From a candidate division WOR-3 bacterium (GTDB lineage: Bacteria; Hydrothermota; 32-111): 64,000 bases of DNA. The DNA lies in NCBI GenBank assembly GCA_039804105.1, contig JBDRZU010000001.1, positions 1,056,001 through 1,120,000 on the forward strand, in the 5' to 3' direction. Below are positions 1,577 to 58,599 of the stretch, in pieces; positions within the stretch are counted from its first letter, which is position 1, and every line of letters begins with the position of its first letter. The position numbers and the translations under genes are program-made. The notes under the pieces were generated by a model that ran no database searches, was not told the DNA's origin, and was given only the letters and a program-made list of their open reading frames with translations.

Positions 1577-1595
1577 TTTCTCCTCCTGATCAATA

Positions 1596-1623
1596 AAAAG
1601 GGCGGTTTTAAAACCGTCCTTTC
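1596..1623 (-). terminator. Intrinsic terminator after hydA
   Basis: Minus strand AAAGGACGGTTTT/AAAACCGCCCTTT hairpin followed by T-tract, ~20 nt after the hydA stop. Confidence 0.7.
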
Positions 1624-1644
1624 GTATATGTATTAAAACTTTTT

Positions 1645-3429: not shown

Positions 3430-3439
3430 TGTTCTCTCC

Positions 3440-5014
3440 TTATTTATTTAACATTTTTTTTATATCATCTTCAAGATATTTACTAAAACTGTTGATCGGA
3501 ATATAAGGTGACTGTCCAAGAGGACAGAAAGATGTGAGTTTCATTATGTATGATAACTCTTTCATCTTTTCCCAATCTTCTATAGTTGATCTACCTTTAA
3601 GAATATTCTTTGAATGTATAGAAAGTTGTTTTGTTCCGATCCTACATGGTGAACACTTTCCACACGATTCATGCTTAAAAAACTGTAAAATTGAATCCAA
3701 TGTCTCAACAGCGTTTCTATCCTCTGAAAGAACAAGTATCGCACCTGAACCTAAAACTGCTGCATATTCACCAAGTGAATCAAAATCCATCTTCACATCA
3801 ATTCCTTTTTCAGATATGAATGCACCAGCAGCACCACCGATCAACGCTGCTTTAAATTTTTTACCTTCTTTTAATCCACCACCATATTTGAAAATAATAT
3901 CTTTCAAAGTTGTTCCCATTGGAACCTCAATAAGACCAGGATAAAGAATATCTCCCATAAGTGTGTAAACCTTTGTTCCTGGACATTTTTCTGTTCCAAA
4001 ACTTTTATACCATTTGCTTCCATTTTTGATTATATCCGTGACATTTGTGAGTGTCTCAACATTGTTGACAACAGATGGGTTCTGTCTGAAACCTTTTACT
4101 CCCGGGAATGGTGGCTTGTTTCTTGGGTTTCCCCTTTTTCCTTCCATCGACTCGATAAGTGCTGTTTCCTCTCCACAAACATAAGCCCCAGCACCTTTTC
4201 TAACCTCAATATCAAAAGAGAAGTTTGATTCAAGAATATTCTTTCCGAGAAGGTTGTACTCTTTACATTTTTTTATAGCATTTTCAACTCTTCTAATTGA
4301 AAGATCATACTCACCTCTTATATAAATGAACCCTTTTGATGCACCAACAGCATAACCTGCAAGAATCATACCTTCGATCAATCTGTAAGGTACACCTTCC
4401 ATTATCAACCTGTCTTTAAATGTTCCAGGTTCACCTTCATCAGCATTGCAAATAATATATTTTTCTCCCTTAAGTGGCGCTGTAAATGACCATTTCAAAC
4501 CTGTTGGGAAACCTGCTCCACCTCTTCCTCTTAATCCCGATTCTTTAACCTCTTTCACAACATCCTCAGGTTTCATTTCAAACAACGCTTTCCCTAATGC
4601 TTCAAATCCACCTATTCCAATATACTCCTCTATGTTTTCAGGATCAATTTCACCTGATCCTTTTAAAACTATTCTTTCCTCTTTTGGTCTTTCAAGTGTA
4701 ACTGTTTCACCTTTAACTATCTCACCTGAAAAAACGAGATCTTTGACTATTCTTCCTTTTAAAAGATGTTCGTTAACGATTCTTGGAACATCTTCACTTT
4801 TAACATTTACATAGTAGACACCTTCTGGGTAAACAACAAGAACAACCCCCTTTCCAGATATTCCAAGATTACCAGTTTCTGCAACCATAACCTCTTCTGA
4901 AAGTCCTGCTTTTTCGATCTCCTTTTTCAATTTTTCAAAAATCCCTTTAGCACCTGCAAGGAGAGTTTCTGGATCAATAGAAACCAAAATATGAGTTCTG
5001 AATATTTTAGCCAT
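3440..5014 (-). CDS. NuoF/HydB-like FMN/NADH-binding subunit, copy 2 (non-bifurcating-type motifs; Cys-less N-terminal Trx-like domain)
   Basis: GRGGAGFPTGLKW, NADEGEPGTFKDR, GAYVCGEET, ESCGKCSPCRIG. Confidence 0.92.
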   Translation of the reverse strand: MAKIFRTHILVSIDPETLLAGAKGIFEKLKKEIEKAGLSEEVMVAETGNLGISGKGVVLVVYPEGVYYVNVKSEDVPRIVNEHLLKGRIVKDLVFSGEIVKGETVTLERPKEERIVLKGSGEIDPENIEEYIGIGGFEALGKALFEMKPEDVVKEVKESGLRGRGGAGFPTGLKWSFTAPLKGEKYIICNADEGEPGTFKDRLIMEGVPYRLIEGMILAGYAVGASKGFIYIRGEYDLSIRRVENAIKKCKEYNLLGKNILESNFSFDIEVRKGAGAYVCGEETALIESMEGKRGNPRNKPPFPGVKGFRQNPSVVNNVETLTNVTDIIKNGSKWYKSFGTEKCPGTKVYTLMGDILYPGLIEVPMGTTLKDIIFKYGGGLKEGKKFKAALIGGAAGAFISEKGIDVKMDFDSLGEYAAVLGSGAILVLSEDRNAVETLDSILQFFKHESCGKCSPCRIGTKQLSIHSKNILKGRSTIEDWEKMKELSYIMKLTSFCPLGQSPYIPINSFSKYLEDDIKKMLNK

Positions 5015-5471
5015 TTTTCTTCTCCCTGTATTTGGTTATTATTTCATCAATCTTTTCCGGTGTAAGATTTCCATACATATCATCATCTATCATCATTGCG
5101 GGAGCAACTGCGCAAACACCAAGACATGATGATGTTTCAAGTGTAAACATGTTATCATCAGTTGTCTCTCCTTCTTTTACTCCGAGCGTCTTTTTCAGAT
5201 AGTTGAACACAGTATCACTTCCCATGAGTTGACATGGTGGTGAAACGCAAACTCTAACGATATGATGTCCACGTTTTTTCACTGAAAACATCGTATAGAA
5301 TGTTGCAACTCCCATCACTTCGGATCTACTGACTTTTAGATACTTTGAAACAGCAACAAGATCATCCTCTGAAAGATACTTTTCCTCTTTTGAATTCTGT
5401 ATATCATGCAGGATGTAAAGGAGGTTTTCTCTTGTTGGTTCATACTTTTTAAGTATTTTTTCTCTATCCAT
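5007..5471 (-). CDS. NuoE/HydC-like [2Fe-2S] subunit, copy 2
   Basis: VATFYTMF, CVSPPC...CLGVCAVAP; start placed at ATG 5471 after SD GGAGG. Confidence 0.92.
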   Translation of the reverse strand: MDREKILKKYEPTRENLLYILHDIQNSKEEKYLSEDDLVAVSKYLKVSRSEVMGVATFYTMFSVKKRGHHIVRVCVSPPCQLMGSDTVFNYLKKTLGVKEGETTDDNMFTLETSSCLGVCAVAPAMMIDDDMYGNLTPEKIDEIITKYREKKNG

Positions 5472-5484
5472 AAATCCTCCGAAT

Positions 5485-7107
5485 TTATTTTTTCTTTTTA
5501 AAACATATACCCGCTCTACATTTCTTCTCATTTATATGTTCAAGATACTCATCTTTGAAATACCTTATAGTTGAAAGAACCGGATTTGGTGCTGTTTGAC
5601 CAAGTCCACACAAAGATGTTTTGCAGATCTGTTCTCCAAGATGTATTAAAAGATCCAACTCTTCCTCTTTTGCTCTTCCTTTTGAGATCCTTTCAAGAAT
5701 CTCAAGCATCTTTTTTGTTCCGATTCTGCATGGTGGACATTTTCCACATGACTCATCCTGAGTGAATTCAAGAAAATATTTTGCAAGATCGACCATACAT
5801 GTATCCTCACTCATAATGATAAGTCCACCTGAACCTATTATCGTTCCAAGTTTTTTCACACTTTCATAATCAAGTGGAGTATCAATAAATTCAGCAGGGA
5901 TACATCCTCCAGAAGGCCCTCCGATCTGTGCTGCTTTAAACTTTTTATTGTTTGGAAGTCCACCACCGATTTCATAAACCATTTCTCTTAATGTTGTTCC
6001 CATCGGAACCTCAACAAGACCAGTGTTGTTTATCTCACCTGCAAGTGCAAAAACTTTTGTTCCCTTACTCTTTTCAGTTCCAATCGATGAGAACCATTTG
6101 CTTCCTTTTAGGATTATCTGACATATGTTTGCGTATGTCTCAACATTGTTTATCAGAGTTGGTTTTCCAAATAACCCTTTATCTGCTGGAAATGGTGGTT
6201 TTGGAGACGGTGTTCCTCTTTGTCCTTCTATAGAATGCATCAATGCTGTTTCTTCTCCACAAACAAAAGCACCTGCACCAACTCTTATTTCAAGATCAAA
6301 ATCAAGTCCTTTACCAAAAATATTTTTTCCTAAAAGATTCTCATCATACGCTTTTTTGATTGCACTCTTCAACCTTTTTATAGCGAGTGGATACTCTGCT
6401 CTCACATAAACATAACCTTGTCTTGCTCCAACAGCATATCCTGCAATAGTCATTGCTTCGATAACTGAAAAAGGATCTCCTTCAAGAACAGATCGATCCA
6501 TAAAAGCACCTGGATCTCCCTCATCAGCGTTGCACACCACATATTTTTCGTCTCCTTTCGAGTTTCTAACTAATTCCCATTTGAGTCCTGTTGGGAAACC
6601 TGCTCCCCCCCTTCCCCTCAGGCCTGAATCTTTTATCTCTTTAATTACATCCTCAGGGCTCATCTCAGTTAAAACTTTTGCAAGTGCACTGTAACCATCT
6701 TTTCCGATATACTCTTCAAGTGATTCAGGATCTATGATTCCACAGTTTCTTAAAACTATCTTTAACTGTTTCTGGAAAAATGGGATCTGAGCTGCCTGTT
6801 GAACTATCTTTTCAGAATCTTTTTCTTTGTAAAGCAACCTTTGAACCACTCTTCCTTTTAATAAATGTTCTTCAACTATGTCTTTTGCATCCTCAGGTTT
6901 CAATTTTTTATAGAAAACTCCATCAGGATAAACTATCACAACAGGTCCAAGTTCACATATCCCAACACAACCTGTTTCAACTATGTTCACCATACCTTCA
7001 AGTTTATGTTTCTTTAACTCTTCAACAAGTTTATCTCTGAAAGAATAACCTCCACTTGAAATACAGGATGCTCCAGCACACAGAAGAAGGTTATATATTT
7101 TTGCCAT
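5485..7107 (-). CDS. NuoF/HydB-like subunit, copy 1 (bifurcating-type motifs, no C-terminal 2x[4Fe-4S] domain)
   Basis: N-terminal CAGASC...GCVGIC; NADEGDPGAFMDR; GAFVCGEET; GGPSGG; ESCGKCPPCRIG; ends CRAGICFKKKK. Confidence 0.93.
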   Translation of the reverse strand: MAKIYNLLLCAGASCISSGGYSFRDKLVEELKKHKLEGMVNIVETGCVGICELGPVVIVYPDGVFYKKLKPEDAKDIVEEHLLKGRVVQRLLYKEKDSEKIVQQAAQIPFFQKQLKIVLRNCGIIDPESLEEYIGKDGYSALAKVLTEMSPEDVIKEIKDSGLRGRGGAGFPTGLKWELVRNSKGDEKYVVCNADEGDPGAFMDRSVLEGDPFSVIEAMTIAGYAVGARQGYVYVRAEYPLAIKRLKSAIKKAYDENLLGKNIFGKGLDFDLEIRVGAGAFVCGEETALMHSIEGQRGTPSPKPPFPADKGLFGKPTLINNVETYANICQIILKGSKWFSSIGTEKSKGTKVFALAGEINNTGLVEVPMGTTLREMVYEIGGGLPNNKKFKAAQIGGPSGGCIPAEFIDTPLDYESVKKLGTIIGSGGLIIMSEDTCMVDLAKYFLEFTQDESCGKCPPCRIGTKKMLEILERISKGRAKEEELDLLIHLGEQICKTSLCGLGQTAPNPVLSTIRYFKDEYLEHINEKKCRAGICFKKKK

Positions 7108-8522: not shown

Positions 8523-9248
8523 TTATCCTCCTTTATGACATTCGATCATGTTCTCTTCAAGAACTTTTTTAAAAACTTCAAAACCTCTGTTTTCAATCGT
8601 TCCATCAAATTCAAAAGCGATATATCTTCTTCCAATCTCATCGATATAATGAGCATCAGAAGAACATATAATTTTATACCTTTCTTTGTATAAATCAACC
8701 TCTTTCGTGATTTCAACTCCATCAAGTTTTAAATCAGAAGGAATAAATCCAAGTTGCGACACTATTGAAAAATTTGGTCTATCTATATGTGAAGCAAATG
8801 CAAGCCCACCAAAACTATGAATAAGTGAAATAACCTGGTCAACAGACATTTCAGATGAAATCCCTAAAAAATAAGGATACTCATATAAAACCTCATCATA
8901 CATGTCAACAACAACCTGTTTCCCCATTTTTTCAGGATCATTTTTTATTTTTGGAAGCGTTTTTTCAAATTCTTTGTAAAAATTCTCGATACTTTCAAGA
9001 TTTTCAAAATATCCAAGTATATGAACTTCCTCTTTTGTTTGAATCTCAATTCCTGGTATCACCTCAACATCTATCATATCAGCAGCATCCATAACTCCTT
9101 TTATATTATGAATAGAGTTATGGTCTGTGATCGCAATAATGTCAAGTTTCATGAATTTTGCCATTTTTGAAATTTGAACAGGAGACATATACCAATCAGC
9201 ACATGGAGAAAGACATGTATGAATATGTAAGTCGGCCTTATGTCTCAT
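8523..9248 (-). CDS. PHP-domain phosphoesterase
   Basis: DLHIHTCLSPC, ITDHN, SSDAH. Confidence 0.92.
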   Translation of the reverse strand: MRHKADLHIHTCLSPCADWYMSPVQISKMAKFMKLDIIAITDHNSIHNIKGVMDAADMIDVEVIPGIEIQTKEEVHILGYFENLESIENFYKEFEKTLPKIKNDPEKMGKQVVVDMYDEVLYEYPYFLGISSEMSVDQVISLIHSFGGLAFASHIDRPNFSIVSQLGFIPSDLKLDGVEITKEVDLYKERYKIICSSDAHYIDEIGRRYIAFEFDGTIENRGFEVFKKVLEENMIECHKGG

Positions 9249-47547: not shown

Positions 47548-48366
47548 TTGTTTAAATTAAGATTTTGGGGAGTAAGGGGTTCAGTCCCTTCTCCAGGAAA
47601 AGAAACAAACTTTTTTGGTGGTAATACAACATGTGTTTCAATTGAAAACAATAAAACTTTTTTAATAATAGATGCAGGAACTGGAATCAGAAATATCAAT
47701 TTTTATTTAAATGAAAGAAAAATTGATAAAATCTATATAATTTTTACACACTATCATTGGGACCATTTACAGGGTTTACCCTTTTTTGCTCCAATATTTA
47801 ATCCCCAGATTAAGATTGAAATTTTTGGTAAAAAAAATGTTTCTGAAGTTTTATCTTTACAGATGAAACAACCATATTTCCCTGCAGATTATAAAAATCT
47901 TCCTTCAAAAATTGAACATAAAAATTTACAGAAAAAATTTAATATAGAAGACATTTTCATTGAAACTATCGAGAATAACCATCCATCAGGTTGTGTTGGA
48001 TTAAAGTTCACTTACAAAAATAGAAAAATATCTTTCATAACGGACAATGAACTTCTTGATCATGGAGAAAATATAACGACCAAAAAAGATTTTTCAGATT
48101 TTATAAAAGATACCGATATTTTTGTTCATGATGCACAATACACAAATAAAGAGATCGTATCGAAAAGGGGATGGGGACATTCTACTTTTGATGATGTTAT
48201 TGAAATAGCTAAAATGGGAGGAAACAAAAAAGTTGTTTTTACCCATCATGATCCGATGAGAAGAGATAAAGAATTAAAAGAGATAATAAATGGATTAAAG
48301 GAAAAAAATAAAAAACTTAAACTCACTGCTGCAAAAGAAGGAATGGAAATTAAATTCGATATCTAA
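47548..48366 (+). CDS. MBL-fold metallohydrolase (RNase Z/phosphodiesterase-like)
   Basis: FWGVRGSVPSPG, GGNTTC, DAGTG, THYHWDHLQG, GWGHS, THHDP. Confidence 0.9.
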   Translation: MFKLRFWGVRGSVPSPGKETNFFGGNTTCVSIENNKTFLIIDAGTGIRNINFYLNERKIDKIYIIFTHYHWDHLQGLPFFAPIFNPQIKIEIFGKKNVSEVLSLQMKQPYFPADYKNLPSKIEHKNLQKKFNIEDIFIETIENNHPSGCVGLKFTYKNRKISFITDNELLDHGENITTKKDFSDFIKDTDIFVHDAQYTNKEIVSKRGWGHSTFDDVIEIAKMGGNKKVVFTHHDPMRRDKELKEIINGLKEKNKKLKLTAAKEGMEIKFDI

Positions 48367-49367
48367 TGAGATACAATTTTAATCTGTTTATTGTATTCTC
48401 CATCATTATAACAATAGTGATTTCATTAGGTTTTTATAATATATTCCACCTATCCTCCGATGGAGTAATTTATGAGGAAAAAGATGATAAAACGATTGAA
48501 ATAGTTTATATAAAACCATCTTCATCCGGTTTTTTTACAAATCTTGAAGTTGATGATAAAATAGTTGCTGTAAATGGAAAAATACCAAAATCTTTATCAG
48601 ATCTCAAAGGAAACATTATTGAAAAAGGTGGTGCAGGAAGAATCTTAATTTACACGATAGCAAGAGGGAAACAGATTTTAAACATTCCAGTTAAACTTGG
48701 ATACTATTATTCAAGAAGTTTTTTTATAACCGAAATGATAATCGTTTCGCTTTTTTTATTCCTTTCTTTTCTTTTTTACATTTCTTTTGAAGAGAATTCC
48801 ATGGAAAGTTTTTATGTTTTCCTTTTTTACTCTTTAGTTTCTGTCACTCATATCTTTTCTTTAGTTTCATTTATCACTTATCAACTCTATATTTTTTTAA
48901 TAATCTCCGCTTCCTTTTTACCAGCGATAATAATCCATTTTTCTTTAATTTTAAGAAAGGATCTTAAAAGAGAATATATTGTCATCACTTATTTAACATC
49001 TTCCTTTATATTCTTTGTCTGGTTATTTTCATATCTCATTTTCGCTTTCACTTTAACAAAACAAAGTTTGAACAACCTAATGACAACTGTAAAAATTACT
49101 CAGTTTTTAATGGGAATTATGACACTTGTTGGAATTTTTTCTATGGTTTATTCTATTTACTCAAATATAAGAGAAAAAAAGTTCGATCTTGTAACGATTA
49201 CATCCATTTTGTTTCTTATGGGATTTTTACCATATATATTTCTCTATGCTTTTCCTGTTGCTTTTGGAAAACAAGAGATTTTGCCTGTAAACATGTGTAT
49301 TAGTTTCTCAATAATACCCCTTTTTTCAATTTTGATTTATAAGTTTTTTTCAAAATCTAAATTATGA
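48366..49367 (+). CDS. Membrane protein with periplasmic PDZ domain and ~7 TM helices
   Basis: TM, then PSSSG..LEVDDKIVAVNG (PDZ-like), then multiple TMs. Confidence 0.7.
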   Translation: MRYNFNLFIVFSIIITIVISLGFYNIFHLSSDGVIYEEKDDKTIEIVYIKPSSSGFFTNLEVDDKIVAVNGKIPKSLSDLKGNIIEKGGAGRILIYTIARGKQILNIPVKLGYYYSRSFFITEMIIVSLFLFLSFLFYISFEENSMESFYVFLFYSLVSVTHIFSLVSFITYQLYIFLIISASFLPAIIIHFSLILRKDLKREYIVITYLTSSFIFFVWLFSYLIFAFTLTKQSLNNLMTTVKITQFLMGIMTLVGIFSMVYSIYSNIREKKFDLVTITSILFLMGFLPYIFLYAFPVAFGKQEILPVNMCISFSIIPLFSILIYKFFSKSKL

Positions 49368-50368
49368 ACAAAATTAAAAAAATATTTATCATTTTTTCTT
49401 TTTTGTTTTGTCTTTTAATCCAAATATATGCAACCTATAAAGTTTTTTTGATATCTACAGATAAAGCTGTTTATGAAGAAAAAGAGGATGGAATATATTT
49501 CAAATATATCCCAACTCAAAGTAATCTGTTTAAAACAGATGCTGCAATAGGTGATAAACTTATTTCAGTAAATGATATAAAAATAGAGAATAAACATTAT
49601 TTGCATAATCTGATCTTTGATAGAACGAAACCTTCGACTGTTGTTCTTTACAAAGCATTTGATGGAGAAAAACTAAAAATTTTTTCTTTAGAACTTGAAA
49701 AAAGATTTTCGAATTTTGATATACTATTCTCATTTTTCCTGGGGTTATCATTTTTGTTTTTAATTTTTTTAATTTTTTTAAATTATCTTCCTTCGAAAAC
49801 AAATTTTTCTTTCTTTTTTATGTTCCTAACATTATCGTTTATTTCAGTTTTCATCAATGTTCCTTTCAGTAACAGATTGTTATATCTATCTTTTATAATA
49901 TTCTGTTTGTTGAATCAGATATCATTATTCATTTTTACAAAACATTTTCTTACCAATATCAAATATTTTTTTATTTCTTATTTGATTTTTGGTTTGACTT
50001 TGATATCTATAATTTTATGGGCTATACATTACTATTATTGGACAACAACATTAAAAGTATCAGATTACAGAAATCTTATGAATTTTGTTCGATTTTTTCA
50101 GTTAAGTATATCTTTAAATATGATACACTCAATAGTGATAATAATGAAAAAAATTTTCAAACTTTATGAAAAAAATTCTCCAGTTGAATATTTTGTTGCT
50201 GCTTATTCTTTTATTTTCATTATTCTAACATATCCAATTTTTTATTCGTTACCGATAATATTAAGAAAAAAGGAACTCATACCATTTTATTTTTTCTTTT
50301 TATTCTATTTTATAGCTTTAATTTTAATGTTAAGATATAAAAAAAGATTACAAAAAGTTTTCTTATAA
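49364..50368 (+). CDS. Paralogous PDZ-containing multi-TM membrane protein
   Basis: Same architecture: VYEEKEDG..IGDKLISVND; ends YSLPIILRKKELIP vs YAFPVAFGKQEILP in the upstream gene. Confidence 0.68.
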   Translation: MNKIKKIFIIFSFLFCLLIQIYATYKVFLISTDKAVYEEKEDGIYFKYIPTQSNLFKTDAAIGDKLISVNDIKIENKHYLHNLIFDRTKPSTVVLYKAFDGEKLKIFSLELEKRFSNFDILFSFFLGLSFLFLIFLIFLNYLPSKTNFSFFFMFLTLSFISVFINVPFSNRLLYLSFIIFCLLNQISLFIFTKHFLTNIKYFFISYLIFGLTLISIILWAIHYYYWTTTLKVSDYRNLMNFVRFFQLSISLNMIHSIVIIMKKIFKLYEKNSPVEYFVAAYSFIFIILTYPIFYSLPIILRKKELIPFYFFFLFYFIALILMLRYKKRLQKVFL

Positions 50369-51754
50369 ATGAAAAAAGAATACTTATACTATATCATAAT
50401 CATTGCCGGAATTATTCTCTTTCTTGAATTATCATTTTCTTTTATTTTATATACAAATATAAGAAACGATATCAGACAGGACTGCTTCATAAACAATCAG
50501 TTGAATTTAAAAAAGATTATTTTACTTATAAACTCTAATCTGTTTTCTATTTTACAGGAAGAAAATGTTGTAAAAGATATTTATTTTGAAGCTCAAAATA
50601 AATATAATACAAATTTTTTCATAAATAATAATAATCTTTATATTAAAAATGAAGAGAAAACTTATAAAGTTCCTGAAGAAAGTAAAAATATTCTTTTTGA
50701 TATTTTCTTAGAGAGAAAAGAAAATGGAAAAAATTTTTCAATATTTCTCGATTATGAGCAAATTCCAGAGGAGATAAAAGAACAACTTGATAAATATTGT
50801 TTACTGAACAGTTCTTATGGTTTTTTCGAAACAAAAAATTATCTTGTCAATTATAAAAAATCATCTTTTAAGGGATTACCAAACTATACTCTAATATTTT
50901 GGGAGGATAAAGATCTTGAATTCAAACATTTTAACGATATATTGTTTCTTTTTGTTTCAATTCACATTTTAGTTTTGATATTTATTTCAACATTCATAGC
51001 TTTCTACATAAACGCATTCTATACAGTTATAAAAATGGAAGAGGAAGCAAAAAAGAATCTTGAACTTCTAAGAATAAATAGAACTTTGACTATAGAAAAA
51101 TTCAGTGAAGCAATCGTTCATAATATCAACAATCCATTAACAACCGTGTATGGTTATATACAGATCCTTGTAAAAAAGAAACCAGAACTTATCAGTCAGT
51201 TCAAACTTGATAAAGTTTTGGAAAATATTGAATTTATATCAAACCAGTTAAAATTATTGCTGAACAAAAAAGTTTCTGAAACAGAAGAGTATATTGATAT
51301 AAATGAATTCATAAAAAATGAGTTAAAATTTTTAGAGCAAACTTTAAGATCTGAAAATATAACAGCTTTCTTTTATGAGGAAACCGGAATTCCAAAAATA
51401 AAAATCAACAAAAACGATTTAAAAATGATTTTTGATAATCTGGTAGATAATGCTATCGATGCTCTTGAAAAATCAACATTAAAAAACATAATCATTCGAA
51501 CATATTATAAAAACCATAAAGTTTTTTTGGAAATCGAAGATTCAGGTGAAGGTATAACAGATGAAATAAAGGAAAAAATTTTTGATCTTTATTTCACTAC
51601 GAAAAATTCTCAAAAATTTTATAAAAGAGGTTCAGGAACCGGGATAGGACTTTATTCTGTTAAAAAGATAGTAGAAAATTATAATGGAAATATTACTTTT
51701 TCAACAATCTTTGGAAAGGGAACAACTTTTACCGTTTCATTTCCTGCTGATTAA
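50369..51754 (+). CDS. Sensor histidine kinase
   Basis: 2 TM; HNINNPL, NLVDNAIDA, DSGEGI, FTTK, GTGIGL, GKGTTF. Confidence 0.92.
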   Translation: MKKEYLYYIIIIAGIILFLELSFSFILYTNIRNDIRQDCFINNQLNLKKIILLINSNLFSILQEENVVKDIYFEAQNKYNTNFFINNNNLYIKNEEKTYKVPEESKNILFDIFLERKENGKNFSIFLDYEQIPEEIKEQLDKYCLLNSSYGFFETKNYLVNYKKSSFKGLPNYTLIFWEDKDLEFKHFNDILFLFVSIHILVLIFISTFIAFYINAFYTVIKMEEEAKKNLELLRINRTLTIEKFSEAIVHNINNPLTTVYGYIQILVKKKPELISQFKLDKVLENIEFISNQLKLLLNKKVSETEEYIDINEFIKNELKFLEQTLRSENITAFFYEETGIPKIKINKNDLKMIFDNLVDNAIDALEKSTLKNIIIRTYYKNHKVFLEIEDSGEGITDEIKEKIFDLYFTTKNSQKFYKRGSGTGIGLYSVKKIVENYNGNITFSTIFGKGTTFTVSFPAD

Positions 51755-52244
51755 AATAGAATAAAAATTCCCCTGAATCGATTCGTAAACTTTCCGAATG
51801 ATCTTGAGTATTCAATAATATTCCCTCAAAACTTCCACTCAATTGACTAAAAAAAGAATCTGGAACTGATTCAAGATAGATTTTTCCACTTCCAATAAAG
51901 GATGAGCATTTATAAATTTTGTTTAGGTTTTTAAAATTAACCATTATAAAAGTATTATAATCGTATGGAATATATATAAAATTGAACCTTGTTGTTTCTG
52001 GAAACGATATGGTTATGTTAATACTACCATCATAATTTTCAGCATAAAGATAATAGTATCCAAAATCTTTCTGTCCTTTACAATTTTTTTCAAAATCAAG
52101 AGAATCTTTTTCTGAAATAAATCTGATGTATTCGTAAGATGCACCAGAAAAAAAAGAGCATGAACTAAAATTTATAAGAGAAGAGTAAAGAATTAGAATT
52201 AAAATTGTAGTAAGGATTTGTTGATTCTTTTTTAATATATTCAT
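51729..52244 (-). CDS. Putative lipoprotein, beta-rich
   Basis: Hydrophobic leader ending FSSC; ..LSGSFEG...IDSGEF. Confidence 0.6.
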   Translation of the reverse strand: MNILKKNQQILTTILILILYSSLINFSSCSFFSGASYEYIRFISEKDSLDFEKNCKGQKDFGYYYLYAENYDGSINITISFPETTRFNFIYIPYDYNTFIMVNFKNLNKIYKCSSFIGSGKIYLESVPDSFFSQLSGSFEGILLNTQDHSESLRIDSGEFLFYFNQQEMKR

Positions 52245-53163
52245 ATTTTATATTATAAACATTTTTTTCCTTTGAGTAAACAAATGTTAAACTCAGATTA
52301 AAAATATTGTCTGATCTATTTTCAACCTCTCCAACAGTAAACAACGAATCCAAAACGGTGTGAATTAGTGGATTAAATTTTATTTTTTCATAGGTTGATG
52401 CAAAAACAAACTTTGCTTTCCTATTTAACTGAAAAGTTATTTTTCCTGTCAAAGACAAATCTTTATTGTAAGAATAATCATCCAAAAATGAATCATCATA
52501 GTAGTAATCTATATTTTTTGTCGTAACTTTTTGAAAATTATAGGAAAAGGATAATCCTATCAAATTCAAAAGATTCAAACTAAAAAGTGGTGTTATGTTA
52601 AAAAGAAATATTTGATCAGACACTTTGTATCCTGCCTTTGAATACAGATGAAAGGAAGAATTGAACGGAAAATAGAATATATTTTTATTTACTAGTACTG
52701 AATATAATGATGAGTTTGTATTTAAAAAAGGATAATAATTGTAGTAAATATCAAAAGAATTTTTTAATGTATAAACAAAATTAAAATTTTCTTTAAAATC
52801 AAGAAAGATTCCAGGAGAGAACATGTTATTTTCTTTATAAAATTCGTTTAAATATAGATTCTGATACGAATAGATTCCAGAAATAAAACTGGTCTTAATA
52901 TCCTCTTTAAAAATCAACTGATACAAAAAATCTGAAGGAAAATTCATATAGTAATTGTTTATAAATGGTGTGTTCAAACCAAAATTAAAAAATATATCGG
53001 ATCCTTCAAAATTTCTTTTCAAATTGAATTCAAATGAAAGTAAAAGATCAGAAATTTTATCATTTGTTTTGAAAAGGTTATCAGTTAAACCAACTGTTAT
53101 ACTACTTGAGAAACTGTGAATAAAAACTAAAAGCAAAAGTATCAGTACGAACTTTTTTGTCAT
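52165..53163 (-). CDS. Putative outer-membrane beta-barrel protein
   Basis: Signal peptide, alternating aromatic beta strands, C-terminal SLLFSYKF. Confidence 0.7.
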   Translation of the reverse strand: MTKKFVLILLLLVFIHSFSSSITVGLTDNLFKTNDKISDLLLSFEFNLKRNFEGSDIFFNFGLNTPFINNYYMNFPSDFLYQLIFKEDIKTSFISGIYSYQNLYLNEFYKENNMFSPGIFLDFKENFNFVYTLKNSFDIYYNYYPFLNTNSSLYSVLVNKNIFYFPFNSSFHLYSKAGYKVSDQIFLFNITPLFSLNLLNLIGLSFSYNFQKVTTKNIDYYYDDSFLDDYSYNKDLSLTGKITFQLNRKAKFVFASTYEKIKFNPLIHTVLDSLFTVGEVENRSDNIFNLSLTFVYSKEKNVYNIKYEYIKKESTNPYYNFNSNSLLFSYKF

Positions 53164-53737
53164 CTCTTCCCCTTTTTTGGAACATTTGGTTTCACTTTTC
53201 TATATTCTATGTCAGGCATAAAACTTTTTTGTCTTTCATCATTTATTCCATCTCCATCTTCATCGATAAATCTATCACTTTGTTTAAAATCTTTCATACT
53301 TTTTCCTATACGATCATCCACAAAATCTCCATCGGTATCAACAAAGTCATCAATAATTATACCCATTTCCTCAACAACTTTCCCAAAAGAGTAGCCATCA
53401 TAAAAACCTTTTTTGTATCCATGTCCTGTTATATCGTTAACAAAATTACTATCTCTATCTATAACAGGCATATATTTCGAATAAATAAATTTATCATTTA
53501 TTCCATCTCCATCCTCATCACTGAAAAGATCGTTCACCCCATCTTTATCTTCATCAATAAATTCGATTTTTACAATTGTATCACCTGTTAAATCGTTTAT
53601 CCCATCTCCATTTTTGTCAAAGTATAGATCGTTTATTCCATTTTGGTCAACATCTTTATACCCATAAACATATCCTAAGTTTTTTGATGGAGCTGCTGAA
53701 AAAATAGGGATACAAACAAATACAATCAAAAATAGCA
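53160..53737 (-). CDS. Exported protein with multiple DxDxDG Ca-binding loops (start uncertain)
   Basis: DVDQNGIND, DKNGDGIND, DEDKDGVND, DEDGDGIND, DTDGDFVDD, DEDGDGIND; signal peptide LLFLIVFVCIPIFSA. Confidence 0.75.
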
Positions 53738-53738
53738 A

Positions 53739-53768
53739 ACACTGGAAGGAAGGGATACCTTCCAGTGT
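53739..53768 (-). terminator. Intra-operon hairpin (terminator or stabiliser)
   Basis: ACACTGGAAGG / CCTTCCAGTGT 11-bp stem followed by TTGCTATTTTT on the minus strand. Confidence 0.55.
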
Positions 53769-53799
53769 CGCTGTTTTATTTAAAAAGGGAGTGTGAGGT

Positions 53800-54297
53800 C
53801 TAATTCTTCTTTTTAGTATCATTTTTGGGAGTCCTGTTACAATTTCCCTGACAATTACCATTACCCTGTTTGTCCTGATTTCTCATTTGATTCTGGTTTC
53901 TATACTGGTAATTATTTCCTTCACCATCTTTTGCGTTATCACAAATTCCATCACCATCTTCATCTACAAAATTCTTCTCTTGATTTTTTATCTTGTTTTG
54001 CTCTTTGTTCTGGTTTTTTGCTGATTTATCAGTATTTTTGTTTTTCTCTTGATTTTTTACCTGATTTTTTTCTTGGTTCAGATTACCATTTTGTTCTTTA
54101 TTTTGAACACCATTCTTTTCTTGGTTTCTGTTCTGTTCTTTGTTTTGGGTCTCACCCTTGTTTTGCTCTTTTTCTTGATTCATTTCTTGTTCATAAACTT
54201 TTTGATCCTCATCTTTAGTCGTTGTTTGATCTGCATAGAGATTAACTGCTACGACAAGAAGAAGAGAGAGAAGAGTTATTAAAATCCTTTTTTTCAT
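53800..54297 (-). CDS. Secreted Q/N/E/K-rich repeat protein with one DxDxDG motif
   Basis: SD AGGAGG; signal peptide ..NLYA; NQEKN/QNKEQN repeats; FVDEDGDGICD; GNGNCQGNC. Confidence 0.8.
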   Translation of the reverse strand: MKKRILITLLSLLLVVAVNLYADQTTTKDEDQKVYEQEMNQEKEQNKGETQNKEQNRNQEKNGVQNKEQNGNLNQEKNQVKNQEKNKNTDKSAKNQNKEQNKIKNQEKNFVDEDGDGICDNAKDGEGNNYQYRNQNQMRNQDKQGNGNCQGNCNRTPKNDTKKKN

Positions 54298-54327
54298 TTT
54301 TGCCTCCTTTTTTTTCTTCAATAAAAG

Positions 54328-54343
54328 AGCAAAAGGTGTGCCA
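54328..54343 (-). promoter_or_regulatory. Sigma54 (-24/-12) promoter
   Basis: TGGCAC-ACCTT-TTGCT, ~30 nt upstream of ATG 54297. Confidence 0.85.
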
Positions 54344-54394
54344 AAACATAAATTCTGTTATTTCGAAACTTAAAATTTTGTTAAAATAAAAACT

Positions 54395-54430
54395 CTTACA
54401 ATTTTGTAAGTTGAATTACATTTTTGTAAT
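54395..54430. promoter_or_regulatory. Tandem palindromic boxes (candidate enhancer-binding protein sites)
   Basis: CTTACA-N4-TGTAAG and ATTACA-N4-TGTAAT, 20 bp apart. Confidence 0.65.
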
Positions 54431-55375: not shown

Positions 55376-56158
55376 ATGATAAAAAGGATTAAATACAAAA
55401 AAGTTTTTTTTCATTATTATAATGAAAGTCAAAATACTTCCGCTGTCCTGCTTTTACATGGTCTTGGGGGAACATCTTTTTCTTTTAAAAAATATTTTTA
55501 CATTTTAGAAACACAGAAAATACCTTTTTTAGCTTCAGATCATCCTTTTCATGGAAAAACTGATGAGAAAGATTTTTTTGTCTATGTTGATAAAATATAT
55601 GAATTTTTAAGAAAACAGGGAATCGATAAAATCAAAATAGTTTCACATTCGTTCGGTTCTTTCATTACTGAACTTTTTTATAACAGATATAAAAATTTCG
55701 TTACAGAAATAATGCTCATCACACCTTTTATTGAAGCAAAAAAACAAACAAAAGGTGTAGGACTTTTTTTATATAAAAAAAAATATTTTTTCAAATTTGC
55801 TGGAAACATTTTATCAATCTTTCCTGAAAAATTTAAATACCCAGATTACTCTAAAATTCGTCGAAAACCATACTACGCATACTGGTTAAACGATATGACA
55901 CATTGTGATAGAAAAGGATATTTTGATGTACAATATTTTATTTCTGATCGAAAAAGTGAAAATCCAGAATTTTTAAAAATGAGCGAGATACATTTAGGGA
56001 AATATGATGTTATTACTTATTCTGACCTGACTTTAAAACTATTAAAAAAATATCAAGTCAAAAATATCACAGTTCATGAAGGTGATCATCTGTTACCTTT
56101 AAAAGAATTTTTTTATTTTAAAGATTTTTTTATAAAATTTGTAAAACAAAATGGATAA
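55376..56158 (+). CDS. Alpha/beta hydrolase
   Basis: LLLHGLGG, DHPFHG, SHSFG nucleophile elbow, GKYD, GDH. Confidence 0.85.
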   Translation: MIKRIKYKKVFFHYYNESQNTSAVLLLHGLGGTSFSFKKYFYILETQKIPFLASDHPFHGKTDEKDFFVYVDKIYEFLRKQGIDKIKIVSHSFGSFITELFYNRYKNFVTEIMLITPFIEAKKQTKGVGLFLYKKKYFFKFAGNILSIFPEKFKYPDYSKIRRKPYYAYWLNDMTHCDRKGYFDVQYFISDRKSENPEFLKMSEIHLGKYDVITYSDLTLKLLKKYQVKNITVHEGDHLLPLKEFFYFKDFFIKFVKQNG

Positions 56159-56960
56159 AATTTTAACAGAAAATTTTTCACCTCTTTTATTTGCTTTTTG
56201 TGGAGGTGTTTTTACATTTCTTTTGACTGCAATTGGTTCTTCAACTGTTTTCATTTTCAAAAAAATTACTTCAAAAATATCTGATTCGATTCTTGGATTA
56301 TCAGGTGGAATAATGCTTGCTGCAAGCGTGTTCTCTTTGCTTTTACCTTCAATTGAGATTTCAAAAAAACAATTACCACTTTTTTTTCTACCTCCAATTT
56401 TAGGTTTTTTACTTGGAGCATTTTTTTTAAAATTACTTGATAATCTACTGCCACATATCCATATAAACAATGAAAAATCAGAGGGAATAAAGACCAACCT
56501 TAATAAAAAAATTCTTTTAATGATAGCGATTACTCTTCATAATATTCCTGAGGGACTTGCGATAGGGGTCTCTTTTGGCTCAATAGCAGAAAAAAGTTTT
56601 GCTCTTTTGATACCATCTCTTGTATTAACTCTTGGAATTGGGCTTCAGAATATACCTGAAGGTGCTGCAATCTCTTTTCCTTTAAGAGGAATGGGACTTT
56701 CAAGAACTAAATCATTCTTGTTGGGGGCATTATCTGCAATAGTTGAACCTGTATTTTCATTTTTGGGGGCTTTTATTGTTTCCTTCTTTTCAACCATCCT
56801 TCCTTATGCTTTATCTTTTAGTGCTGGAGCCATGATTTATGTTGTTGTAGAAGAAGTTATCCCTGAAAGTCAATCAAATGGAAATGTAGATCTTGCAACA
56901 GTAAGCACCATGATGGGATTTACCATCATGATGCTTCTCGATATAATTTTTAATGGCTAA
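56151..56960 (+). CDS. ZIP family metal transporter (GufA/ZupT-like)
   Basis: GIMLAASVFSLL, AITLHNIPEGLAIG, QNIPEG, AGAMIYVV. Confidence 0.93.
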   Translation: MDKILTENFSPLLFAFCGGVFTFLLTAIGSSTVFIFKKITSKISDSILGLSGGIMLAASVFSLLLPSIEISKKQLPLFFLPPILGFLLGAFFLKLLDNLLPHIHINNEKSEGIKTNLNKKILLMIAITLHNIPEGLAIGVSFGSIAEKSFALLIPSLVLTLGIGLQNIPEGAAISFPLRGMGLSRTKSFLLGALSAIVEPVFSFLGAFIVSFFSTILPYALSFSAGAMIYVVVEEVIPESQSNGNVDLATVSTMMGFTIMMLLDIIFNG

Positions 56961-58599
56961 GAATTTCTTTAATATCCTCCTCAACCGACTTTATTGGAAC
57001 AAGATTGAAATTATCCTTTATCACCTGATAAACATTTGGCTTTACAAAAGCAGGCATTGATGGACCAAGTTTTATGTTTTTTATTCCAAGATGCAGTAAG
57101 GTTAATAAGATACAAACAGCTTTCTGTTCATACCATGACAAAACAAGAGATAATGGTAAATCATTCAACTGAAGATCGAACGCTTTGGATAATTCAAGTG
57201 CAATTTTGATAGCTGAATAAGCATCATTACATTGCCCAATATCAAGTAATCTTGGAATTCCTTCAATATCTCCAAAGTTAAATTTGTTAAATCTATATTT
57301 ACCGCAGGCAAGTGTTAGAATTATTGTGTCTTTTGGAAGTTTTGTTGCAAAATCGGTATAATAGTTTCTACCGGGTTTTGCACCATCACAACCACCTATA
57401 AGAACAAATTTTTTGATCTTACCTTGTTTAACCAGATCGATCACTTTATCAGTAACACTTAAAACAGCATTATGCCCAAATCCAACAGTGATATATTTTT
57501 CATCTCCATCAGATTCAAATCCTTCATTTTCGAGCGCTGCTTTAATAACAGGTGAAAAATCTTTATCTTCTCCTATATGTTCAACATCAGGCCATTGAAC
57601 AAGACCTGTTGTAAAAATTCTGTTTTTGTATGTATCTTTTGGTTTTTGAATACAGTTTGTTGTCATAAGTATTGCACCTTTAAATTGGTCAAACTCCTCT
57701 CTCTGATTTTGCCATGCTGATCCATAATTTCCAACAAGATGTTTAAACTTTTTTAATTCTGGATACCCATGTGCTGGAAGCATTTCACCATGAGTGTAGA
57801 TATTTATTCCCTTTCCTTCTGTTTGTTGTAAAAGCAAATAAAGGTCTTTTAGATCATGACCAGAAACAACTATCGATTTACCTTTTATAGGTGTTACTCT
57901 AACCTTTGTTGGAACAGGATTTCCATAAGCAGAAGTATTCGCTTTATCAAGCATTTCCATGACTTTGAAATTTATTTCTCCAACCTTTAATGCAAGTGAA
58001 ACAAGATTATTTTTATCTCTCTCTCCCATAGCCAACCGGTTCAAAGCGTCATGGAAAAATTTGTAAACATCATCATCTTCTACACCAAGAATCATTGCAT
58101 GATCAGCATAAGCAGCTGTTCCCTTTAAACCATAGATAACAAGATGTCTTAACCCTGCTATATCATCTCCATATTTTTTAACTTCTTTATCAAATGTAAA
58201 ATTTTCAGATTGTTTTAAAACTTTTTCATAATCTTTTTCAACCATAAATGTTGCATTTTCAGGTAAATCTTCTTTATCAAGTTTCTTTTCCAATAAAATT
58301 TTTTCATATAAATTCTTTGCTTTCTCTCTTAACTCTTCTCCTTTTTTTATCATGTCAAAAACTTTTTCAGGATCAAAATTAACATTTGTTACGGTAGTAA
58401 ACAATGCCTCAAGAATAAATCTGTCTATCGCTTTTTCAGTTTTACCAAATTTGTTTATCTTTGAAGCATAAACAGATATACCTTCTGTCAGATAAACAAG
58501 CATATCCTGCAAGTTTGAGGTTTGAGGATCTTTACCACACACTCCAAAAGATGTACACCCCTTCCCATTTGCGGTTTGTTCACATTGATAACAGAACAT
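56950..58599 (-). CDS. hcp: Hybrid cluster protein (hydroxylamine reductase)
   Basis: MFCYQCEQT..GCT..GVCGK, SGHDL, YTHGEMLPAH, GGCDG, GQCND, SWYEQKAV. Confidence 0.97.
   Translation of the reverse strand: MFCYQCEQTANGKGCTSFGVCGKDPQTSNLQDMLVYLTEGISVYASKINKFGKTEKAIDRFILEALFTTVTNVNFDPEKVFDMIKKGEELREKAKNLYEKILLEKKLDKEDLPENATFMVEKDYEKVLKQSENFTFDKEVKKYGDDIAGLRHLVIYGLKGTAAYADHAMILGVEDDDVYKFFHDALNRLAMGERDKNNLVSLALKVGEINFKVMEMLDKANTSAYGNPVPTKVRVTPIKGKSIVVSGHDLKDLYLLLQQTEGKGINIYTHGEMLPAHGYPELKKFKHLVGNYGSAWQNQREEFDQFKGAILMTTNCIQKPKDTYKNRIFTTGLVQWPDVEHIGEDKDFSPVIKAALENEGFESDGDEKYITVGFGHNAVLSVTDKVIDLVKQGKIKKFVLIGGCDGAKPGRNYYTDFATKLPKDTIILTLACGKYRFNKFNFGDIEGIPRLLDIGQCNDAYSAIKIALELSKAFDLQLNDLPLSLVLSWYEQKAVCILLTLLHLGIKNIKLGPSMPAFVKPNVYQVIKDNFNLVPIKSVEEDIKEILSH

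Follow-up and report, generated by a model that had tools for sequence, protein, structure and literature searches.

The DNA window analyzed in this study is a stretch of 64,000 nucleotides (nt) from a candidate division WOR-3 bacterium (positions 1,056,001 to 1,120,000 of the forward strand of contig JBDRZU010000001.1, assembly GCA_039804105.1), the genome of which (G000 in our numbering) comprises 1,811,800 bases and is 85% complete. The minus strand of this window carries a four-gene operon consisting, in the direction of transcription, of two palindromic boxes, a sigma-54 promoter, gene g1, a hairpin, and genes g2, g3, and g4 (Table 1). The four genes are co-directional and overlapping, and all four products carry export signals. 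There is little doubt that this is a genuine sigma-54-dependent operon with conserved enhancer sites and envelope-bound products, that g3 encodes an outer-membrane barrel, and that the core of the operon is kept across phyla. Library scans did not return any Pfam or NCBIfam match for g1, g2, g3, or g4 (Pfam at E values up to 0.1), and a literature search, the coverage of which did not extend to subscription journals, found no paper on this operon. The operon core is a previously uncharacterized one that recurs in several bacterial phyla. The original prediction, made from the letters of the window alone, had proposed a consensus -24/-12 promoter preceded by two TTACA-N4-TGTAA boxes and followed by four envelope-directed genes under sigma-54 control. 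The promoter, boxes, and genes all lie where it had placed them on the minus strand, and rpoN and sigma-54 activators were found in the genome. To that prediction, the present analysis adds the distant link of the g3 family to the barrels of Slam and of the type 11 secretion system (T11SS), the apparently 8-stranded barrel fold of g4, a likely activator, and the occurrence in several phyla.

Table 1. Features of the operon and the convergent kinase gene (position 1 is the first nucleotide of the window)
Feature	Position	Strand	Remarks
Distal upstream activator box TTACAAAAATGTAA	54416..54429	-	Starts 87 nt 5' of the -24 GG
Proximal upstream activator box TTACAAAATTGTAA	54396..54409	-	Spaced from the distal box by two helical turns (20 bp)
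Sigma-54 promoter TGGCACACCTTTTGC, TGGCAC-N5-TTGC	54329..54343	-	-24 GG at 54342-54341, -12 GC at 54330-54329
g1, secreted protein (165 residues)	53800..54297	-	Signal peptide, N/Q/E/K-rich repeats, FVDEDGDGICD, C-terminal Cys motif and basic tail
Hairpin, GC-rich, with interrupted U-tract	53738..53769	-	Directly 3' of the g1 stop codon; terminator scan and folding
g2, acidic exported protein (seven loops of the DxDxDG type)	53160..53822	-	Start at ATG 53822 (220 residues) or TTG 53729 (189 residues)
g3, outer-membrane beta-barrel (332 residues), C-terminal Phe	52165..53163	-	Start overlaps the g2 stop codon (ATGA)
g4, lipoprotein (171 residues, Cys29), small closed beta-barrel	51729..52244	-	80-nt overlap with the end of g3
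Convergent histidine kinase gene	50369..51754	+	Last gene of the operon encoding an MBL protein, two PDZ-like membrane proteins, and the kinase; 26-nt overlap with the end of g4

Promoter, activator boxes, and candidate regulators

The GG and GC dinucleotides of the promoter are 12 nt apart, and the promoter is located 32 nt upstream of the ATG initiation codon of g1, which is preceded by a strong ribosome-binding site (GGAGG). The sequence TGGCAC-N5-TTGC occurs only once in the whole genome, at this promoter. The exact TTACA-N4-TGTAA box is present in six copies, for approximately nine expected from the base composition, and the operon is the only place in the genome where two exact boxes are less than 60 bp apart. 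Relaxing the box pattern led to 14 single copies and one pair genome-wide, which was the same pair. Four of the other boxes, for which the context was read, are apparently inside coding sequence. This organization is conserved in all nine loci of the same family (f1) that carry g1, including the locus of the window itself (L012). In these nine loci, the sigma-54 promoter is kept as TGG[CT]A[CT]-N5-TTGC, the distal box is at -87 or -88 from the GG of the -24 element (in a degenerate form in three of them), the proximal box is at -65 to -69 from the same GG, and the ribosome-binding site is GGAGG or GGAG.

The genome encodes RpoN (one Sigma54_DBD match, E value of 1e-55) and seven full sigma-54 activators (Sigma54_activat matches, 6e-75 to 4e-49), none of which is encoded inside the window. 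In a sister genus (genome G009), g1 is immediately preceded on its strand by genes for a kinase of 603 residues and a REC-AAA+-HTH_8 activator of 444 residues. The best match of this activator in the WOR-3 genome is the product of G000:C2:354192-355526 (54% identity), the six other activators displaying at most 42% identity. The reverse search returned the G009 gene as the best match, at 54% identity, followed by a gene product at 39%, indicating that the two activators are reciprocal best hits. A gene encoding a kinase of 601 residues adjoins the C2 activator gene. No sigma-54 promoter was seen behind this C2 kinase-activator pair, which implies that its target must be elsewhere and makes the operon of the window the obvious candidate. 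Both C2 proteins fell below every NCBIfam equivalog cut-off, the best models being AtoS/ZraS for the kinase and AtoC/PrsR/ZraR for the activator, and they are, as judged from their sequences, generic members of the NtrC class. Since orthologues sit directly upstream of the operon both in the sister genus and in other phyla, we infer that the REC-AAA+-HTH protein encoded by G000:C2:354192-355526 is the activator of the operon, together with the adjacent kinase.

Two other candidates were considered for these roles. A box at C1:58987 could have marked the gene beside it as that of the cognate activator. This candidate was dropped, since the box seems to lie within a coding stretch and since orthology favors the C2 activator. 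The convergent kinase, the gene of which meets the end of the operon (Table 1), is unlikely to be the cognate sensor; the kinase that accompanies the activator in G009 and in other phyla aligned with the C2 kinase in two segments (45% and 34% identity), and with the convergent kinase over a segment of 71 residues only. Additional sigma-54-like promoters of the TGGCAT-N5-TTGC type were observed on the minus strand at C1:552033, C1:63911, and C1:137415, two of which are directly downstream of activator genes (L002 and L006).

The strong hairpin noted after gene 1 in the original prediction proved to be real, with a folding free energy of -24 kcal/mol and a z score of -6.73, none of 200 shuffled sequences folding as well. 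It is the only terminator-like site on the strand of the operon between positions 51500 and 54600, the scan listing the same palindrome on the plus strand. A hairpin follows the g1 stop codon in the nine g1-carrying loci of the family, with five different stem sequences that vary by lineage. The same position combined with differing stems gives the appearance of a structural element under selection. In several loci the U-tract is interrupted or poor, which suggests that the hairpin acts as a leaky terminator or as a 3' stabilizer rather than as a full stop; a partial terminator or 3' stabilizer is its likely role. Because the hairpin falls inside the longest g2 reading frame, the start of g2 is uncertain. 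The ESM Atlas record of g2 begins at TTG 53729.

Between the g1 stop codon and the hairpin, at positions 53770-53800 of the minus strand, we also observed a pyrimidine-rich element, CCTCACACTCCCTTTTT(A/T)AATA, which is nearly base-for-base alike in two genera whose g3 proteins are approximately 38% identical. The longest g2 frame reads through this element in these two genera (PHTPFFN), and in L019 and L022 the element is clearly noncoding. Possibly acting at the RNA or DNA level, it again leaves the g2 start uncertain.

Predicted properties of the four proteins

Protein g1 contains a signal peptide, eight units of the NQEKN/QNKEQ type, and one DEDGDGICD motif, so that the signal peptide, the NQEKN/QNKEQN repeats, and the FVDEDGDGICD sequence originally ascribed to gene 1 are all present. 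The mature protein is composed of 37% asparagine plus glutamine and 37% charged residues, with a very low mean scaled hydropathy (0.23). The repeat tract is highly variable, ranging from none to approximately 90 residues between genera of the family, and the only invariant part of the protein is F-x-D-x3-D-G-I-C-D. The C-terminus is a short basic tail devoid of transmembrane helix. A homologue search with the motif region (residues 98 to 150) did not return any candidate, probably on account of low complexity.

Gene 2 had been predicted to encode an exported protein with about six DxDxDG loops. Export and the nature of the loops held, and the count was revised to seven, based on the pattern D-x-[DN]-x-[DN]-[GNF]-x-x-[DN]. 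Alignment of 16 sequences from several phyla revealed 36 invariant columns, which mostly correspond to the D, N, and G residues of the loops and to a GYRYG-x-I-x-EE core. By this sequence signature, seven loops around the core, g2 defines a family of its own. Searches with the g2 profile returned at least 637 homologues without any Pfam domain; those with a source name are all annotated as hypothetical, and these names include WOR-3, Stahlbacteria, Calditrichaeota, Marinimicrobia, and KSB1. As found for g1, the protein ends in a short basic tail without a transmembrane helix, and its sequence does not lead one to expect a barrel. DxDxDG calcium loops of the EF-hand, Excalibur, dockerin, and thrombospondin type 3 repeat types have reportedly been described by Rigden and Galperin. 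The pattern of these loops is shared by g2 (seven copies) and g1 (one copy), although no Pfam family of this kind reached its cut-off for either protein. An ESM Atlas neighbor of g2 carries TSP3_bac in 35% of its members, at a score of 0.79 that makes it a lead only. Proteins g1 and g2 may be described, from their sequences, as acidic proteins of the Ca-binding type.

The C-terminal-Phe beta-barrel proposed for gene 3 was borne out. The protein ends in Phe, and the AlphaFold2 model, obtained with an alignment of 95 sequences, is an all-beta barrel (predicted local distance difference test score [pLDDT] of 95.2 and predicted template modeling score [pTM] of 0.88) in which residues 2 to 18 form a signal helix and the strands start at residue 21. 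Our own count of the DSSP string gave 16 strands. The barrel fold can be regarded as certain at the level of the model. Structural comparison with VIA-align identified 16-stranded barrels as the best matches, namely, the protein translocators CdiB and FhaC (Z scores of 19.3, 19.2, and 19.2; root mean square deviations of 3.2 to 3.4 over 259 to 274 residues), followed by porins (18.5 to 17), TamA (17.6), and the polysaccharide exporters PelB, BcsC, and PgaA (16.7 to 16.4). The g3 profile retrieved 618 cluster representatives, including 363 at E values of 1e-10 or less. Among 95 relatives of g3, 25 matched PF04575 (SlipAM, the Slam/T11SS barrel) at E values of 0.01 or less, the best being 7.5e-9, and always over the C-terminal half of the model; two of 31 relatives scanned singly exceeded the 22-bit cut-off of this family. 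The nearest ESM Atlas clusters of g3 (score of 0.97) contain PF04575 in 19% and 32% of their members, and another cluster contains BBP2_2 in 46%. On the basis of these sequence relationships, g3 belongs to a large uncharacterized family that borders on the Slam (PF04575) and BBP2/EpsL families of barrels.

The lipoprotein gene of the original prediction is g4, whose product displays a lipobox-like NFSSC sequence with a Cys residue that is invariant in the nine orthologues. The g4 model (pLDDT of 85.1) is a small closed beta-barrel. VIA-align comparisons gave Z scores of 11.1 with the mycobacterial lipoprotein LpqH, of 8 to 8.7 with 8-stranded membrane barrels, and of 7.7 to 5.4 with the barrels of the type 11 cargo proteins TbpB, HpuA, PmSLP-1, hemophilin, and LbpB, values below 8 perhaps reflecting a common arrangement. 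Foldseek did not return any match to the g4 model at E values of 0.001 or less. Searches of PDB sequences with profiles were not significant either, the best matches being BamM for g2 (E value of 0.43) and a poxvirus protein for g3 (0.13), with none for g4. The large protein database contains 14 relatives of g4, and the named ones are labeled WOR-3 or plain "bacterium."

Conservation in the family, the phylum, and other phyla

A search with g3 was positive for 10 of 12 additional family genomes and for none of 27 genomes sampled from other families. The neighborhood conservation proposed as a check on the operon is observed within the family, since all four genes are present in the same order in six of the ten orthologous loci (L013-L018), and the g1-g2-g3 core is found in other phyla. 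Among the remaining family loci, L019 contains g1-g2-g3, with a g4 homologue on another contig, and L022 ends inside g3. In L020 and L021, from one genus (labeled g4), g2-g3-g4 was seen without g1. The sequence of L020 (G010) is cut off 61 nt upstream of g2, and its promoter cannot be judged. In the other of these two loci (L021; L031 at 8800-8930, G007), the sigma-54 promoter is gone as well, and g2-g3-g4 is located behind a sigma-70-like TTGACA...TATAAT promoter. None of g2, g3, and g4 was found in G001 (95% complete), and g4 alone was found in G006.

The phylum was surveyed in a sample of 150 genomes sorted by family (f1, f2, f4, f8, and others). Genes similar to g2 were present in 10 of 12 f1 genomes, four of five f2 genomes, all six f4 genomes, and no f8 genome. 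Genes similar to g3 were present in 10 of 12 f1 genomes, in six of eight f8 genomes, and in a few others, but in none of the five f2 and six f4 genomes. In families f2 (L073 and L075) and f4 (L074 and L076), the g2-like genes belong to other sigma-54 operons (TGGCA[CT]-N5-TTGC) devoid of g3, which also encode an FN3-like lipoprotein (identified by eye), a Tyr/Trp/Cys-rich protein, and DUF4384/PEGA-domain proteins. In family f8, the L077 locus (1312-6330; G148) displays a sigma-54 promoter, TGGCACCGGAATTGT, followed by genes encoding a small secreted low-complexity protein rich in Q, V, T, and R, an OB-like protein, and a g3-like barrel (E value of 2.6e-47), and then by genes for another OB-like protein, a kinase, and an activator of the NtrC type. 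OB-like genes of a similar kind follow g3 in five loci, three of which are labeled Aminicenantes or Aminicenantales.

From other species genomes, 39 loci were fetched by similarity to g2, and 19 of them, one of which belongs to the family of the window, hold a g3 homologue. The g3 gene directly follows a g2-like gene in 18 of the 39 loci; for the remaining g3 locus, the gene upstream was assigned to the DxDxDG cluster only by a clustering of 21 loci. The record titles of these g2/g3 loci refer to Marinisomatota/Neomarinimicrobiota, Gemmatimonas/Gemmatimonadales (Gemmatimonadota), Cytophagia/Bacteroidota, Krumholzibacteriia, and Aminicenantes. Twelve of the 19 loci display a TGGCAC -24 element, which was identified by the strict pattern in six and by eye, with a variable -12 element (TTGA, TTGT, or TCGC), in six more, and two of the loci in which it was not seen are cut at the start of the contig. 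At least five loci (L034, L041, L051, L061, and L065) contain full CGACA-N4-TGTCG palindromes upstream of the module, which share the ACA-N4-TGT core of the boxes and are accompanied by upstream NtrC-type activators; L056 contains a half-site and the first half of a palindrome at the end of the stretch that was read. Of the 21 clustered loci, 14 include a kinase gene and 13 an activator gene. The g2 gene is usually preceded in other phyla by a g1-like gene, the product of which has a signal peptide, a Q/K-rich tract of low complexity, the motif F[VI]D-x2-GDG-x-[CN]D (often followed by DADGDGIPNGQDPD), and, C-terminally, a Cys motif with a basic tail. The only similarity found for these proteins is a subthreshold one to TSP_3 and Excalibur (E values of 0.002 to 0.07). 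In GC-rich phyla, tracts rich in K, Q, A, and T replace the repeat region of g1.

In loci from Desulfuromonadales records (L042-L047 and L049), DxDxDG repeats are fused to the C-terminus of a predicted lipoprotein of 430 to 470 residues, and there is no g3 gene nearby. In L044, the sequence TGGCACAACCCTTGC was observed just upstream. Together, the layouts found in f2, f4, f8, and Desulfuromonadales indicate that sigma-54 control is the most constant theme and that the pairing of g2 with g3 is frequent but not obligatory.

The operon is flanked by other genes. The convergent kinase gene, encoding 461 residues, belongs to an operon (47548-51754, plus strand) with overlapping stop and start codons, which also encodes an MBL-fold hydrolase and two paralogous polytopic membrane proteins of approximately 333 residues, one of which has a weak N-terminal PDZ match (E value of 0.003). 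There is no adjacent response regulator gene. These four genes keep their position next to the g1-g4 operon in six of the ten orthologous loci (three of five genera), and in two further loci of these genera the contig stops within the kinase gene or shortly beyond it. On the other side, a membrane protein (56151-56960, plus strand) contains HNIPEGLAIG and QNIPEGAAIS motifs, which are typical of ZIP-family metal transporters, and a Cys-rich protein of 549 residues (56950-58599, minus strand) resembles, by its sequence, a hybrid-cluster protein. Both genes are kept near the operon within the genus only.

Possible roles of the module

The reading that we tentatively prefer, at somewhat less than even odds, is that of a module induced by a two-component system and sigma-54, which would use a dedicated barrel to bring acidic proteins of the Ca-binding type to the outer membrane. 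The activator would be phosphorylated in response to a signal that is presumably perceived outside the cytoplasm, and it would then bind to the boxes and open the sigma-54 promoter. Protein g1 would be made in excess, because of its strong Shine-Dalgarno sequence and of the hairpin stopping or stabilizing most transcripts after g1, and read-through past the hairpin would yield g2, g3, and g4. The g3 barrel would be the dedicated conduit or anchor that positions g1 and g2, as well as g4 in this family, at the outer membrane or outside it. Such an arrangement would be akin to a barrel-plus-cargo secretion pair of the type 11 or two-partner kind.

According to PMC5449769, Slams combine a TPR domain with a predicted 14-stranded DUF560 barrel, which never occurs alone, and the cargo of Slams share an 8-stranded barrel. 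The operon resembles such systems in that the g3 barrel gene adjoins that of a small lipoprotein modeled as a closed, apparently 8-stranded barrel and in the distant sequence link of g3 relatives to PF04575. However, g3 lacks the N-terminal TPR domain that is obligatory in the Slams of that paper and was modeled with 16 strands (our count) instead of the 14 predicted for Slam, and for these two reasons it was not filed as a Slam. In addition, the universal neighbor of g3 is g2, which is not expected to form a barrel, and the operon is under sigma-54 control. Type 11 secretion has been described so far for Proteobacteria, whereas the module is present in records labeled WOR-3, Marinisomatota, Gemmatimonadota, Bacteroidota, and Aminicenantes. 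The tie to Slam that remains is a likeness of logic, a barrel beside a lipoprotein with a putative 8-strand barrel, and a distant sequence link. The two-partner secretion proteins FhaC and CdiB provide the best structural matches of g3 and a similar operon logic, an exoprotein encoded with a barrel. Unlike these proteins, g3 has no POTRA domains, for which there is no room because the barrel starts at residue 21, and no two-partner secretion domain match was found in g1 or g2.

Beyond the missing TPR domain and the difference in strand number, several observations weigh against export through a dedicated barrel. Porins score within approximately one Z unit of the translocators, indicating that the fold of g3 does not separate a channel from an exporter. 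The g3 protein of the window did not itself match PF04575, either in the Pfam scan (E values up to 0.1) or in the genome search (E values up to 10), and relatives of g3 also match, weakly, TIGR03016 (5 of 95), EpsL (3 of 95), and BBP2_2 (1 of 95), which makes the link of the family to PF04575 a loose one. The scores of g4 against type 11 cargo may mirror only the common 8-strand arrangement, and g4 is confined to family f1, being present in 11 of the 150 genomes of the phylum sample, all from f1. In one genus, g1 is missing from two loci, and one of these has a sigma-70-like promoter instead. Outside f1, the g2-like and g3-like genes do not co-occur in the phylum.

A periplasmic divalent-metal or envelope-stress module, the alternative that the original prediction had itself offered, is a close rival, which we judge somewhat less likely. 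By analogy with known systems, g1 and g2 would remain periplasmic and serve as inducible acidic cation buffers or chaperones, and g3 would be a co-induced specific porin or a stabilizer of the membrane. ZraP, produced under the control of ZraSR, forms such a sigma-54-dependent periplasmic module for metal and envelope stress in enterobacteria, Spy and CpxP are comparable in logic, and OprH, encoded by oprH-phoPQ, is the co-induced outer-membrane protein to which g3 may be compared. The sigma-54 promoter preceding the gene of a small, highly charged, and apparently abundant secreted protein, the NtrC-type kinase-activator pair, the invariance of the seven g2 loops, and the near equality of porins (Z scores of 17 to 18.5) and translocators in the g3 comparison all fit this proposal, as does the f8 locus, where the operon of the g3-like barrel, of the sigma-54 two-component type, encodes small OB-like periplasmic proteins instead of g2. 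The kinase and activator score best against the AtoS/ZraS and AtoC/PrsR/ZraR models, those of ZraS and ZraR coming next-best, yet under the curated cut-offs, and Pfam and NCBIfam scans assigned neither g1 nor g2 to the ZraP, Spy, or CpxP families. The operon also adds a dedicated barrel and a lipoprotein to the ZraP scheme. The comparison with ZraPSR is reasonable as far as the regulation is concerned, and no further. The conserved internal motifs of the g3 family and its sequence link to barrels exporting proteins or polymers, not to general porins, speak for a dedicated barrel, as does the translational coupling to g3 of a lipoprotein whose class of fold is that of cargo displayed on the surface; none of these points is decisive.

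The original prediction had compared the operon with curli and Fap and proposed a Ca-dependent extracellular fiber or matrix. In such a system, g1 would be the Q/N-rich major subunit, g2 the minor subunit or nucleator, and g3 and g4 the secretion channel. The 37% N+Q content of g1, its seeming overproduction relative to g2-g4, the presence of a dedicated barrel and a lipoprotein in the same operon, and the recurrence of g1-like genes with low-complexity tracts in other phyla are in keeping with such a fiber. As that prediction had itself remarked, there is no Csg or Fap homology, since no family match was obtained for g1-g4 (Pfam, E values up to 0.1). The charge and hydropathy of g1 would better fit a soluble disordered or helical chain than an amyloid core, its repeat tract is conserved neither in length within the family nor in composition across phyla, and one genus of the family lacks the gene. 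The g3 model is a 16-strand barrel of the monomer type, unlike CsgG, in which the channel is built from a lipoprotein. Curli and Fap proper (CsgA/B/G) are excluded by the absence of family matches and the nature of g1, and a fiber of this general type appears improbable. Even less probable is a module linked to an exopolysaccharide, of the PEP-CTERM/EpsL type, in which g3 would export or anchor a polymer and g1 and g2 would be Ca2+-cross-linked matrix proteins. The weak TIGR03016, EpsL, and BBP2_2 matches cited above point in this direction, together with the match of the activator to the PEP-CTERM regulator model (3.3e-121, with a score below the cut-off of that model) and the structural matches of g3 to PelB, BcsC, and PgaA. 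The PEP-CTERM reading is left unsupported by the lack of an exosortase (PF09721) match in the 85%-complete genome; moreover, g1 and g2 do not end in the transmembrane helix of PEP-CTERM proteins, and no polysaccharide synthase or PEP-CTERM look-alike was seen among the listed open reading frames of the conserved neighborhood.

Returning to a dedicated barrel for proteins of the Ca-binding type, a broader proposal, which we consider doubtful, is that the g1-g2-g3 core, the kinase and activator, and the ACA-N4-TGT sites form an unrecognized outer-membrane secretion or display system of several phyla, a nonproteobacterial cousin of type 11 secretion. In such a system, EF-hand-like calcium-binding proteins would be exported by a 16-strand barrel devoid of TPR, with sigma-54 providing the control in answer to an extracytoplasmic signal.

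The operon brings together three families for which there is no Pfam or NCBIfam model, namely, g2, with at least 637 members, g3, with 618 cluster representatives, and the g1-like proteins. The predicted regulatory circuit is complete, from the kinase, activator, and enhancer sites to the promoter and the internal attenuating hairpin, and could be rebuilt in vitro. According to PMC3162934, sigma-54 has been proposed to control the bacterial exterior, and the module fits this proposal. It is a conserved and tightly regulated envelope module in phyla that have been little studied, which the record labels identify as WOR-3, Marinisomatota, Gemmatimonadota, Bacteroidota, Aminicenantes, and Krumholzibacteriia. 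For protein transport across the outer membrane of nonproteobacterial diderm phyla, the g3 family provides a concrete and testable candidate.

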